Source of the DNA: Candidatus Omnitrophota bacterium | GTDB lineage: Bacteria > Omnitrophota > Gorgyraeia > 2-01-FULL-45-10 | DNA: 43,115 nt | Direction: 5' to 3' | Assembly (NCBI GenBank): GCA_026387155.1 | Contig: JAPLMF010000026.1 | Span: forward strand, 1-43,115 | In this document: positions 16,101-21,298 of the stretch, piece by piece | Layout of the letters: each line of letters starts with the position of its first letter | Numbering within the stretch: the first letter of the stretch is position 1 | Made by a program: the position numbers and the translations under genes | Notes under the pieces: generated by a model | What the model was told of the DNA's origin: nothing | Seen by the model: the letters and a program-made list of their open reading frames with translations, nothing else | Database searches by the model: none

Positions 16101-19100
16101 CTTGTCGTATCTGTCGGCTTCACTATTGGGCGCGTTCGCCTCGAGCTCCTTGAGTAGGTCTTTAACTTCAGTATTGAATAGCTCTACCGATATCTGAGCC
16201 CCAAGTTTGTAGGTTTCCTTGGTAAAATCACTATTCCATGTTCCGGTGATGCCTATCCAGGCCCCGAGCCGCCCGTACCAGTGCTGTCTCCCGTATTGTT
16301 TCAGCCACGGGGTGGCTATATCATTAAGCATCTTAAGGAGCGACGCCTTGCTGGCATCGGATGTCATGAATAGGTCTATTGCGGCTTCAGATATGCTCTT
16401 ATCGCCTCTCGCTACGGATCCCAGGACCGCCAGCCTCTTCGCGTCGAGATCAATGCCCGCCTCTTTCAGTATAGTAGCCACCTTCTCCGGCCGTCTGCCA
16501 TGAGCAGCTATCAAGCCGTGAGTGTACATCGTAGCTTTTATATAATCCTTCTTGGCTATATACTTCTTTATGATTTTAAAAGCGAACTTTTCGGCGTTGA
16601 TTCGTTCATCTGAATCGGCTGCTTTGGCTATAACCGGCAATATGGTTTCAAGCGCCGCAGCATAATTCTCATCGTCGTATAGTGTCTTCGCCCGCGTTAA
16701 GGCATCGGCCATTGAAAATCCGGAAACATCAAGCGCAGATACTTTTATATCATCTATTGTGAACATGGCGCGGGTGAGATTTTCGGTATCACGGCTCTTT
16801 GCATATTCGAGCGCACCCTTAAGCGCTTTAATATCGTCAGGATTCACCGTACCGTTAAGTCTGTCGATACTACTTGCCACAAACCTGTAGGCCCTGCCCC
16901 TGAATAGCGCATCGTTCATATTACCGGTGGTTTCGGCGTGTATCACCGGCAAGAGATTCTTTACTACGCCGAGGTAGTCACCTTTATGGGCAAGTTCCTT
17001 TGCGCCGTCATAAGTTTTCCTGCCGTCCCTTGAATTATATAAAGCCGGATCGAGAGAGACTTTTATGAGCGCCAGACGCTTACTGGCAGACCTCTCTTCG
17101 GCGGCCTTTTCGGCTGCGGCCTTCTGCTCTTCAGCGGCTTTCTTTTCTGCGACAGCTTTTTCGGCTGCGGCTTTCTGCTCGGCAGCCTTGCGCGTTTCCT
17201 CGGCTGCTATTTCGGCTGCGGCTTTCTTTTCTGCAGCGATCCTCTTTCTTTCAACGGCTTTCTTCTTTGCGGCAGCTTTCTTTTCTGCAAGGGCTTTCTT
17301 ATCTGCGATGGCTTTCTGCTCGGCAGCTTTACGTGCTTCCTCTGCGGCCTTCTGCGCTTCAAGTGTTACAGAAGCGGTAACGGACGGAGCAGCGGGGGGA
17401 ACTGCAGGTGCCTGTACTACCGGCGGAACCGTTAATGCGGGAGCCATGACTGTGGATGGCTGTGCGACAGAAGGTGCCGGAGCGGCCGCTAATGGAGCAG
17501 CCGGTTTCTCTTCCTTAGGAGGTGGAGGCGTCCCGCCGCCAGGCCCCGGACCGGGTCCGGCTAAGCCGGGTCCGATTCCGGCGCCGACAGGCTTTTCCAC
17601 CTTAGCGGCTTCTTCGGCAGCCTTCTTCTCGGCTGCGGCCTTCTGTTCTTCAGCGGCTTTCTTTTCTGCATCCTTGCGCGCTTTAGCTTCCGTATTTATG
17701 GTAGCAAGCAACTGGCCGGGTAATTTTTGAGCAACTATCAATGCCCTGTCAACCTGTTCGGGGGTTTTGGCTGCCTTTATGAGTCCGCTTGCTATATCTC
17801 TGGTATTTATATTCTCAAGATCCGATGGAGGCGCGCGGCTCTCGGGCGTTACTGCTTCCGGAGCCTTTGGCACCGCAGATCGTTTTATTGTTATACCGAA
17901 TATCTTATCGAGATTCGCGATGAGCTGATCCTCGGTCTGTGCCTTATACATGCTCTGCTCAGGTGCTACGACACGATTGACTTCGGCGCCCATGCCTATC
18001 GATGGAACCGCACCGGCTATTATAGCGGAAGCCATTAGGCCTTTTACCATTTTCTTTGATTCGGTCGCGGCAAGACGTTCGAACACTCCCGTAGGCTTCT
18101 CGCCTCGCGCCATACGAGCCATTACACTCTTGCGATAGGCTAATAATTTATTGCCGAGGATGGCTATCAAGGTCACTGAGGAAACGGTTAACGTTAGCGC
18201 CGCTATTGAAAATCCTCCAACCATCATGTATATACCGCCTACGACGGCACCGGCCGCGCCGAATCCTACTATCATGCCTCTGAGATTAGGCGCGGTGAGT
18301 TCAAATATCTCGCGGATGAACTGCGCGCGCGTCGTGGTCTTTCCAAGGGCTTCGCTTTCTACCGCGGCAAATCTTCTGGCCATGTAAGGCGCGGCTATCA
18401 CATATAATACGGTCGTCGCAAGAACTATCATTGAGCCCATCGTTGTGAAAGCGGTGAATGCTCCGCCGACTGAACCCGCGCCCTTAGCTACGATAAGAAG
18501 GACTGTGAGGAGTAGCGGCATCGCGGCTACACCGGCTATCTTCGCTTTTATCGCGGGACGCGAGCGCTCAAGGGCCTTTCCTTCCGGCGTTTGGGCGTAC
18601 ATCCTGGAAAACGCTGTCCTTGCCCACATGCCGGCAAGCGCTATCGCGCCCACGCCTGCTGCGAATCCGGCAGTACTGCCGGAAAGGAGGGCTAAAAGGA
18701 TCGTTCCTGTCACCGCAGCCAGACTGAAACCGAGGTAACTCATTGCGCGCTGGAAACCGGTCCTCTGGACCGTCACAGCGAGAGATATCTTTTTGTGGAA
18801 TATGATCGAGATGGCCGCTCCCGCTAAGATCCCTATCGCCGCCATAGCAAGCGCCGCAATGACCACAACCGGCGCGGCCTGCGGAAACATTATCGTAGAT
18901 GCGAGCGCAAGGAGTGATCCTATCGGCATCGTGCCGCTCAATAGCTGCAGTATGGATACAGGGATCGCTCCCACAGCCCCCGCCAACTCGCGCGAACTGG
19001 CTACGCCGCGCAGCGCAAGAGCGAGATTCTGCTGTCCTCTATAAACTTGGGAGAACTTCTTTACTTTCACTAAATAGATAGCGAGTCCTATTATAACGAG

Positions 19101-21251: not shown

Positions 21252-21298
21252 GACGCCCTTGCCTTCGGCACCCGCAAAGTCAGGGTCTTACCAAATCC
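19450..21298 (-). other. Divergent SecA-type ATPase motor (NBD1, PPXD-like insert, NBD2, start of the helical scaffold), interrupted by a frame break at 21264-21287
   Basis: Each motif is given against E. coli SecA as I remember it:
- MLMGFGKTL (21281-21298, previous ORF frame) vs MRTGEGKTL.
- GKGVLVATKSDDLAKRDA vs GKGVHVVTVNDYLAQRDA.
- YFVLFDEADDPLVYQLMTPFIISG (DEAD at about 20940-20957) vs [23 protein letters not shown].
- [34 protein letters not shown] vs [36 protein letters not shown].
- AITIVTNRGARGVDVKL vs AVTIATNMAGRGTDIVL.
- DKQFRRRLVRRPGDTGAWRAYWSIEDKIF vs [31 protein letters not shown].
- LLDNAFSRYLSTMNRAQYDI vs LDSLWKEHLAAMDYLRQGI. Confidence 0.8.

Follow-up and report, generated by a model that had tools for sequence, protein, structure and literature searches.

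SecA-like motors built into giant proteins are the main published clue to how bacteria export or insert proteins whose lengths run from thousands of residues to over 100,000. Giant Omnitrophota proteins have been found to carry divergent SecA domains beside transmembrane regions, the Omnitrophota genomes with such proteins also carry a normal secA and secYEG, and it has already been proposed in print that such a domain is dedicated to the giant protein that carries it (West-Roberts et al. 2023, 10.1101/2023.11.21.568195). A PF07517 architecture cluster of giant Omnitrophota proteins has been reported as well (10.64898/2026.06.07.730766).

We analysed a stretch of 43,115 nt (the window), which is a complete contig, and found that one of its loci belongs to this published kind of giant protein with a SecA-like domain. 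As in the proteins described by West-Roberts et al., overlapping SecA_DEAD and SecA_PP_bind matches occur without a SecA_SW match, transmembrane regions adjoin the motor in a multi-pass membrane protein of great length, an Omnitrophota genome bin holds the nearest named relative, and the role proposed is the same, export of the giant protein. The window protein differs from them in being, with ~4,600 aa, among the smaller ones of the class (relatives reach at least 5,600 aa), in belonging to a specific sub-family where the N-module is conserved, a 10+1-helix block comes directly behind the motor and scaffold and finger are probably retained, and in being interrupted in this copy by a frame-breaking gap. 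On balance, we favour the reading that positions 17976–21427 of the minus strand are the conserved core of a giant membrane protein of the kind known from Omnitrophota, split here by a local defect, and that this core would serve as a SecA-like export motor.

Canonical SecA (PF07517, PF01043, PF21090, PF07516, PF02810; TIGR00963) shares with the window motor a nucleotide-binding domain 1 (NBD1) with an inserted preprotein cross-linking domain (PPXD), followed by nucleotide-binding domain 2 (NBD2). All of the ATPase motifs and the GRRWSxGLHxAIEAK segment are also common to both, as are, apparently, the long helix of the scaffold and a hairpin with QxDP at the position of the two-helix finger. 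In contrast to canonical SecA, a soluble protein of about 800–1000 aa, the window motor is an internal domain between transmembrane helices, is predicted to lack the N-terminal ~80 residues, the wing domain, the C-terminal linker and the zinc finger, and has its Walker A in another frame with helix alpha1 missing, whereas canonical NBD1 is one chain. SecA2 is a second, specialised SecA for particular, often very large, surface proteins; it is a separate soluble protein with SecY or SecY2 as its partner (SecA2/SecY2 in Gram-positive bacteria), and in mycobacteria it lacks the wing domain. The mycobacterial SecA2 structure 4uaq was among the Foldseek matches of the window motor, but the motor differs from SecA2 in being a covalent part of what would be its cargo and in carrying a membrane block of its own. 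The features of the locus are collected in Table 1.

Table 1. Positions of the motor, the membrane block and the surrounding regions in the window
Feature	Position	Strand	Basis or remark
ORF1, 1923 aa	21167..26938	-	first ~1,888 residues (N-terminal part) of the giant protein, followed by 35 out-of-frame residues and a stop
Conserved N-terminal family module, aa ~30-661	24956..26851	-	27-60% identity to the start of the giant ORF in 7/7 related loci
SecA nucleotide-binding domain 1, first part including Walker A	21275..21427	-	ORF1 frame, alignment
Walker A, MGFGKT	21284-21301	-	ORF1 frame
Frame junction	about 21264-21281	-	homology moves from the ORF1 frame to the ORF2 frame
ORF2, 2701 aa from a TTG start; open frame from 21287	13146..21251	-	rest of the motor, membrane block, C-terminal region
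Walker B, LFDEADD	20940-20960	-	F-DEAD invariant in the family
Preprotein cross-linking domain (PPXD)	20529..20786	-	Pfam SecA_PP_bind 8.3e-11 / 5.6e-11
SecA-specific GRRWSxGLHxAIEAK segment, end of PPXD	20520-20570	-	motif order
Nucleotide-binding domain 2 with motifs V and VI	19860..20318	-	Pfam P-loop_SecA and alignment
Motif V, TNRGARGVDV	20046-20075	-	in NBD2
Motif VI, DKQFRRRLVRRPGDTG	19923-19970	-	in NBD2
49-aa long helix at the SecA helical-scaffold position	19632..19778	-	AlphaFold helix 568-614, pLDDT ~60-80; register uncertain
Two-helix-finger-like hairpin (FKLTILGLLDNAFSRYL...PPDVKLRD...)	19335..19550	-	profile, hhalign, alignment
Family-specific membrane block, ~10 transmembrane helices	18135..19271	-	family-averaged hydropathy
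Conserved 11th hydrophobic segment	17976..18041	-	family-averaged hydropathy
Lineage-specific C-terminal region, ~1,600 aa	13149..17975	-	low-complexity, then helical and mixed sequence

Identity and C-terminal end of the motor

The SecA hallmarks that an earlier note had read in this DNA were all recovered by motif comparison, on the minus strand and in the SecA order, together with a GASGTM and a YWSIEDKIF motif. The catalytic motifs were all kept across 9 family members, and the arginines of TNRGARGVD and QFRRRLVRR lined up with canonical SecA arginines. When the frame was repaired, Pfam matched the motor with SecA_DEAD (5.7e-22), SecA_PP_bind (5.6e-11) and P-loop_SecA (6.3e-8; 32.9 bits against a cut-off of 27). 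The PPXD lay within NBD1, with SecA_PP_bind over its gathering score, and was present in all nine family members. Of the models named in the earlier note, SecA_DEAD and SecA_PP_bind matched but not SecA_SW (PF07516), which was unmatched in each of the nine; PF02810 (zinc-binding SEC-C) was likewise unmatched in the Pfam search of the window protein. NCBIfam SecA models matched the motor at 2e-40 to 1e-18 with every score far under the ortholog cut-offs (best 138.6 bits against 862 for NF006630, and 123 against 800 for TIGR00963), the SecA2 models gave 3e-31 to 7e-27 (108 bits against a SecA2 cut-off of 930), and identity to canonical SecAs was 22–29%. The AlphaFold model of the motor had a pLDDT of 60–90. 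When it was compared with the PDB by Foldseek, the best 36 matches were all SecA (E 2e-25), with alignments that cover SecA nearly full-length, and the top TM-scores belonged to SecY-bound SecA (6itc_A, 0.66; 3din_A, 0.63). Judged by sequence and predicted fold, the motor is a genuine but divergent SecA-type motor, distinct from housekeeping SecA.

The motor had also been said to lack the usual SecA C-terminus, and this was right only for part of it. Neither a zinc-finger tail nor a wing domain was found in any family member, and both are predicted to have been lost from the motor; the scaffold helix and a finger-like hairpin, on the other hand, appear to have been kept, as seen with Foldseek, hhalign and the family profile. 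Searched against 177,635 PDB sequences, the profile matched the hairpin to T. maritima SecA residues 721–819 (E=0.079), hhalign placed it in the same T. maritima register (P=0.043), and a greedy full-length alignment gave this register a posterior confidence of up to 0.9; the similarity of finger and scaffold to SecA is marginal (E about 0.04–0.08). Between the scaffold helix and the hairpin lie ~27 residues (joined aa 2437–2463) at the place where canonical SecA has the wing domain, and the hairpin ends ~20 residues ahead of the first transmembrane helix. These observations suggest that the published view that SecA-like domains of giant proteins lack the scaffold deserves re-examination.

Membrane block, family and protein layout

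That an Ala/Gly-rich polytopic block directly follows the motor was borne out by family-averaged hydropathy, which gave ten helices and an 11th segment. The block reads as five hairpins with alternating Lys/Arg-rich cytoplasmic loops and very short outer loops, its helices are rich in Ala and Gly, and it is closed by a conserved AYRK...A(R/K)GEKP motif. No internal repeats were seen among the five hairpins, the block had no sequence relative in Pfam or the PDB, SecY included, and its AlphaFold models were of low confidence (pLDDT below 50, with a mean of 38 for the two-sequence model). The stretch after the block was 35–44% identical in 4 relatives. If the 11th segment spans the membrane, the C-terminal region would lie outside the cytoplasm.

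Family members were taken from an exhaustive HMMER search and a metagenome scan. Among 1.84 billion proteins, only 6 representatives matched the linker and membrane block in the exhaustive HMMER search. The nearest named relative, P0001 from the Candidatus Omnitrophota genome bin nW3bin14, shared 33% identity with the window across the motor, the linker and the membrane block, and six metagenome loci were 37–53% identical, each with a single open frame running through N-module, motor and membrane block. In six of the seven related loci the whole unit is one uninterrupted giant ORF, in which the motor lies 945–2086 residues in and is directly followed by the same conserved membrane block; the single ORFs of the relatives span at least 2,473 to at least 5,623 aa. 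The claim that the motor is tethered to its own membrane domain therefore holds for the family, whose state is a motor joined to a private membrane domain within a very large protein. With the 9-member profile, a word-indexed protein search returned only P0001 and canonical SecAs; with the linker and membrane profile it gave no match, being swamped by low-complexity words. A profile scan of contigs from species-representative genomes found only the P0001 contig, and the window's own proteins were singletons in a cluster look-up. The contig carries no marker gene, and its placement in Omnitrophota follows its nearest named relative. Synteny comparison showed neither the window's RND efflux genes nor its large downstream ORFs beside the relatives. 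Taken together, the locus and its relatives constitute, by sequence comparison, a sub-family with a conserved N-terminal module, a motor with a probable finger and a 10+1-helix block.

The frame-repaired protein has about 4,597 aa, with transmembrane helices on both sides of the motor. Hydrophobic segments of ORF1 lie at aa 38–59 (signal-peptide-like), about 1010, 1430, 1500 and 1650–1760, and its N-terminal module had no Pfam match and no known domain. The C-terminal region contains Ala/Lys/Glu-rich and Pro-rich low-complexity stretches, with 18-nt repeats at 17095–17690; it had no Pfam match and was not conserved in relatives. The lytic and outer-membrane-type modules that the earlier note had placed in this protein found no support: the former goes back to one sub-threshold Pfam match to Phage_lysozyme2 (E=0.0076), in a segment with no PDB sequence match that is not kept in relatives, and no outer-membrane-type module was detected in Pfam searches. 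Elsewhere in the window, collapsing the 145-nt repeats at 9.4–9.9 kb left the two flanking ORFs unfused.

The frame break after Walker A

Walker A lies at the end of ORF1, while the rest of the motor is encoded in ORF2 in a different frame. Homology to the relatives follows the ORF1 frame (GFGKTLTLRV) down to position 21269 and the ORF2 frame from about 21281 (DFAGAEGKGVLVAT). The junction is 6 residues short against all 14 canonical SecAs aligned, and 9–17 residues short against all seven related loci and protein P0023, with an out-of-frame gap of roughly 30–40 nt. Helix alpha1, which follows Walker A, is missing in this contig and intact in the relatives compared, and it was encoded nowhere else in the window. 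With its P-loop in one frame, the remainder of the motor in another and no helix alpha1, this copy, as sequenced, makes no intact motor. The single protein of the earlier note, with the motor more than 1,880 residues in, is not encoded as such by this copy, which is split into 1923 and 2701 aa; the note had read across the frameshift and the missing helix without remark. One ORF is the arrangement in six of seven related loci.

Of 173 positions invariant in the relatives 139 were kept in the window, and since intact members keep 75–100% of them this argues against decay; ORF1 and ORF2 are open for 5.8 and 8.1 kb without any other lesion. A second gene on the contig, coding for AcrB, is broken by a 68-nt imperfect duplication whose copies both encode the same peptide in different frames, which is a hallmark of concatenated strain variants. 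As the contig thus holds another assembly-type defect, the break in the giant gene can be read as a misassembly or a recent deletion, and a local assembly defect is its most likely cause, with a very recent deletion otherwise. A programmed frameshift was ruled out, because the frame change occurs in no relative and coincides with missing codons. Local assembly defects can fragment giant genes in genome bins, and the pieces then enter the annotation as hypothetical proteins in their own right.

Proposed role and alternative explanations

The likely role of the motor, as suggested by its sequence features, is that of a membrane-tethered, dedicated translocation motor for the exported regions of the giant protein. 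The motor would be cytoplasmic and be kept at the membrane by the transmembrane block, would probably dock on the cell's SecYEG channel, and by SecA-like, ATP-driven movements of clamp and finger would push very long extracytoplasmic segments across the membrane.

The strongest competing explanation is that the gene was really inactivated, by a genuine deletion that would leave two proteins: an N-terminal one of ~1,900 aa, at the surface or in the membrane, and one of ~2,700 aa whose SecA-like domain would have no P-loop and no ATPase activity. The change of frame comes together with the loss of 9–17 codons, unlike a one-base homopolymer slip, ORF1 and ORF2 were deposited as separate proteins, and the closest named relative is also in two ORFs, split upstream of its motor. 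Against this, both halves have stayed open over their full lengths with invariant residues kept as in intact members, AcrB is broken by an assembly-type duplication on the same contig, and the sole nearby start of ORF2 is a TTG inside a conserved beta-strand, so that we hold inactivation to be possible but doubtful. At the other extreme, the contig does hold assembly defects, and a housekeeping secA mis-joined by assembly to neighbouring genes, the alternative that the earlier note itself had named, could be imagined. We excluded it for practical purposes, since the order of N-module, motor and membrane block recurs in one ORF on six independent contigs, the best score of 138 bits falls far below the SecA subfamily cut-off of 862, identity to canonical SecAs is only 22–29%, and all members are without zinc-finger tail and wing domain.

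Two further explanations concern what the motor would do. In one, the 10-helix block would itself be the protein-conducting channel, and motor and channel together would export protein on their own, independently of SecY, as the dedicated extrusion engine that the earlier note had suggested. The block matches the motor in conservation and invariably comes directly behind it, it has 10 helices with both ends cytoplasmic, as in SecY, the finger-like hairpin ends ~20 residues before the first transmembrane helix, and the best structural matches are SecY-engaged conformations of SecA. The block, however, resembles neither SecY nor any Pfam or PDB membrane family in sequence, its helices are rich in Ala and Gly, its outer loops are very short, no repeat was seen within it, its models are all of low confidence, and SecYEG is also present in the published Omnitrophota genomes that have such proteins. 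We consider a private channel unlikely, and it is similarly unlikely that a block unrelated in sequence to SecY and a motor with a finger make up a single-chain, SecY-independent translocon that the giant protein carries for the export of its own thousand-residue segments. In the other, the motor would have been repurposed, as a nucleic-acid helicase or as a generic ATP-driven switch of the giant protein's conformation, without translocating polypeptide. Its large divergence from SecA would agree with this, as would the place of the SecA motor within the DEAD-box helicase superfamily and the helicases at Foldseek ranks 37–50; but the SecA matches were better by ~20 orders of magnitude, and the SecA-specific PPXD and the finger-like hairpin are retained and conserved, which makes repurposing very improbable.

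For the tethered export motor that we prefer, the layout of the protein sets a constraint. The N-terminal ~950-aa region precedes the first internal transmembrane helix and is made before the motor, so the motor in cis is unable to thread it, unless this happens post-translationally or in trans. The sub-family is compact and alignable, which makes it a concrete target of fairly modest size for predicting structures and for assaying ATPase activity and export.

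Composition of the SecA-type motor

We found that the motor is clearly of the SecA type. Pfam searches with ORF2 alone, the second of two pieces of one giant membrane protein, matched SecA_DEAD (4.5e-14) and SecA_PP_bind (8.3e-11), and seven SecA and SecA2 models of NCBIfam matched at 2e-40 to 1e-18, all with scores far below the ortholog cut-offs (e.g. 138 versus 862 bits). When the frame was repaired, SecA_DEAD rose to 5.7e-22 and P-loop_SecA came above its gathering score. Alignment by MAFFT with 14 canonical SecAs placed Walker A, DEAD, the GRRWSxGLHxAIEAK segment, motif III, TNxxxRGxD and the arginine-rich motif VI in register. 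An AlphaFold model of frame-repaired residues 1821-2950 had pLDDT 60-90 over the motor, and all of its best 36 PDB matches in Foldseek were SecA (E down to 2e-25), with nearly the whole of SecA aligned; the top TM-scores belonged to SecY-bound SecA (6itc_A, 0.66; 3din_A, 0.63). These searches bear out the SecA motifs listed in an earlier note on this DNA. That note had also proposed HMM and structural checks: SecA_DEAD and SecA_PP_bind matched but SecA_SW did not, in any of nine members searched, and structure prediction led to SecA for the motor but gave pLDDT < 50 for the membrane block in two-sequence models. In P0025, a distant relative of 5115 aa, a PPXD-like segment occurs twice in succession at residues ~1560-1760 ('GRLPYDLQAAIEAKE' and 'GRRLSYGLHAAIEAKE'), the preprotein-binding domain being tandemly duplicated within the motor.

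The absence of SecA_SW agrees with West-Roberts et al. (bioRxiv 10.1101/2023.11.21.568195), who described such domains as having neither scaffold nor wing. Even so, partial retention of the scaffold is suggested by four observations. Alignments from Foldseek covered ~780-880 columns of SecA chains 765-816 residues long, and the model placed a 47-residue helix immediately past motif VI. When all PDB sequences were searched with a family profile, Thermotoga maritima SecA residues 721-819 (finger region) ranked second (E 0.079), with two more SecA entries at E ~0.24. Local hhalign gave the same finger register (P=0.043), and full-length comparison reached a posterior confidence of up to 0.9 over 'QxDPYVKFR' versus 'QRDPLxEYK'. 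Assignment of the hairpin to the SecA finger is probable. Because only ~27 residues (joined aa 2437-2463) separate scaffold helix and hairpin, where canonical SecA has the wing domain, we read the module as NBD1-PPXD-NBD2-scaffold plus a finger-like hairpin, without wing or zinc tail. The earlier statement that the usual SecA C-terminus is lacking thus holds for wing and zinc tail, whereas scaffold and hairpin seem retained.

Frame break after Walker A

All long ORFs of the window lie on the minus strand. ORF1 and ORF2 share 85 nt, which they read in different frames, so that the feature at 17990-21298 spans both. ORF1 ends with '...KMYQMLMGFGKTLTLRVPKARAS...*' and so contains nothing meaningful beyond the Walker A loop; the ORF2 frame is open after a TAA at 21288-21290 and reads 'DPDFAGAEGKGVLVATKSDDLAKRDA...'. 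The earlier note, in placing the motor beyond residue 1,880 of a protein, had passed silently over this frame change. In six related loci the P-loop lies at residues 945-2086 of a single ORF.

Features of the window outside and including the giant gene
Feature	Position	Strand	Remarks
ORF1	26938..21167	minus	1923 aa
ORF2	21251..13146	minus	2701 aa
Four large ORFs downstream of giant gene	3-12865	minus	1023 aa, 928 aa, 305 aa, at least 1885 aa (runs off contig end)
RND efflux set	27224-36838	minus	outer-membrane factor, HlyD-type adaptor, two AcrB-type pumps; directly upstream of giant gene
AcrB-family gene, split	27224-30091 and N-terminal piece to ~30463	minus	duplication region 30060-30195
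578-aa TPR-rich protein, 176-aa ORF without matches, ParA/MinD-type ATPase (AAA_31, 1.2e-45)	38354-41390	minus	overlapping genes upstream of efflux genes

In protein P0023 and in each of the seven related loci, a helix and loop lie between GFGKTL(T/A)(L/F)R and the strand KGVL(V/I) (for example 'LAAYLLAKEKGFIAANKKD'). The window lacks 9-17 residues of this element, and at the same junction is 6 residues shorter than every canonical SecA aligned (n=14). Using tblastn, relatives' residues 1-10 mapped to 21298-21269 in one frame and those from ~21-24 onward to 21281-21210 in the other, which means that a frame-shifting gap of roughly 30-40 nt (3n+1) has taken out helix alpha1 of NBD1. A one-base slip is ruled out by this gap and its missing residues, and a conserved or programmed frameshift by the same missing residues and the relatives' intact junction.

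Apart from the gap the copy looks healthy: the ORFs are open over 5.8 and 8.1 kb, and 139 of 173 relative-invariant positions are kept (intact members, 75-100%). Local anomalies occur elsewhere in the contig too. An imperfect tandem duplication of 68 nt (copies 78-82% identical) interrupts the second AcrB gene at ~30128; since its copies encode one peptide, EGESTVVLSFEPGINM(D/E)FAAL, but do so in different frames, two strain variants appear to have been joined end to end, and the contig may be chimeric there. A perfect 145-nt tandem duplication at 9396-9670, with 63 nt of identical sequence as a third copy at 9793-9855 (region 9381-9855), falls exactly at the boundary of the 928-aa and 1023-aa ORFs, which stay unfused when the copies are collapsed; the repeat is either real or the product of an assembly loop. 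Because both ORFs are healthy and such anomalies occur, misassembly at ~21270 is, very roughly, somewhat likelier than a real deletion. Genuine inactivation of the split gene in this organism is a lesser possibility, and would be compatible with function at the family level.

Family, membrane block and C-terminal region

An exhaustive HMMER search of 1.84 billion representative proteins, with the non-SecA part (linker and membrane block) as query, found six: window ORF2, P0001 from a Candidatus Omnitrophota genome bin, fragments P0022 and P0023, and the more distant P0024 and P0025. A metagenome scan added six loci (37-53% identity), each with N-terminal module, motor and membrane block in one uninterrupted ORF; their lengths range from ≥2,473 to ≥5,623 codons, lower bounds as each ORF runs off the fetched stretch. 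Six of the seven related loci therefore have the gene as one ORF. Just two blocks are family-conserved, residues ~20-560 and ~1822-3040, the latter comprising motor, scaffold, membrane block and ~50 more residues; middle and C-terminal regions are lineage-specific. In none of the relatives did synteny between the giant gene and the RND efflux neighbours hold. The closest named relative (Omnitrophota genome bin nW3bin14, contig JADGBR010000028.1) is also split, into ORFs 7305-10022 and 9824-20629: its N-terminal module lies in a 905-aa ORF overlapping the motor ORF in another frame, the break is ~200 codons upstream of the motor, and a scaffold gap of 42 N makes the deposited protein 'partial'.

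Family-averaged hydropathy revealed five hairpins, or 10 helices, at residues 2557-2935 (18135-19271), with Lys/Arg-rich loops between them that were taken as cytoplasmic. A conserved AYRK...A(R/K)GEKP loop and a conserved 11th hydrophobic segment (17976-18041) follow, in line with the 10-12 helices noted earlier. No sequence relative of the block was found in Pfam or PDB, and no internal repeat was detected. Should the 11th segment cross the membrane, the ~1,600 residues of the C-terminal region, which start with Ala/Lys/Glu-rich and Pro-rich stretches, would lie outside the cytoplasm. At ~16900-17700 (ORF2 aa ~1185-1450), long Ala/Lys/Glu-rich repeats of 18-nt periodicity flank a Pro/Ala-rich stretch. 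They are similar to the linkers with which TolA and TonB span the periplasm, and this is consistent with an outward-reaching C-terminal region.

The lytic and outer-membrane-type modules claimed earlier are not supported. The lytic module amounts to a single sub-threshold match, to Phage_lysozyme2 (E=0.0076; 16.9 bits, cut-off 28.2), at ORF1 aa ~1113-1258 (23165-23602), a segment with an E-x-S...GLGQIQ pattern that has no PDB sequence match, is absent from relatives and, by a rough transmembrane-helix count, would be cytoplasmic, odd for a lytic domain. A domain search of both ORFs detected no outer-membrane-type domain.

Possible mechanism and neighbouring genes

The central idea of the earlier note, a dedicated built-in SecA motor, is already published. 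West-Roberts et al. (bioRxiv 10.1101/2023.11.21.568195) reported divergent SecA DEAD and preprotein-binding domains in most full-length giant Omnitrophota genes; these form a separate, fast-evolving clade, may be anchored by adjacent transmembrane regions and may export the giant protein itself, in genomes that also hold normal secA and secYEG. Compared with their proteins, the window locus is a rather small new member.

The family combines a SecA-type fold and motifs with a conserved PPXD and a fixed order of motor, scaffold and membrane block; a mis-joined housekeeping secA is excluded. The motor would be cytoplasmic and tethered at the membrane by the block, where it may power the translocation of long extracytoplasmic stretches belonging to the giant protein or its partners. 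The route is probably SecYEG, because the motor retains a finger-like hairpin and nothing resembling a channel is detectable. The block is unlikely to be a private channel. Repurposing of the motor as a helicase-like switch is highly improbable.

The four ORFs downstream gave no Pfam match at the thresholds used, and the 1023-, 928- and 305-aa ORFs none in NCBIfam. The 305-aa and longest ORFs overlap by 17 nt and so could represent a single gene in which the frame is broken again. A cluster of giant surface-type proteins may be encoded at the locus.
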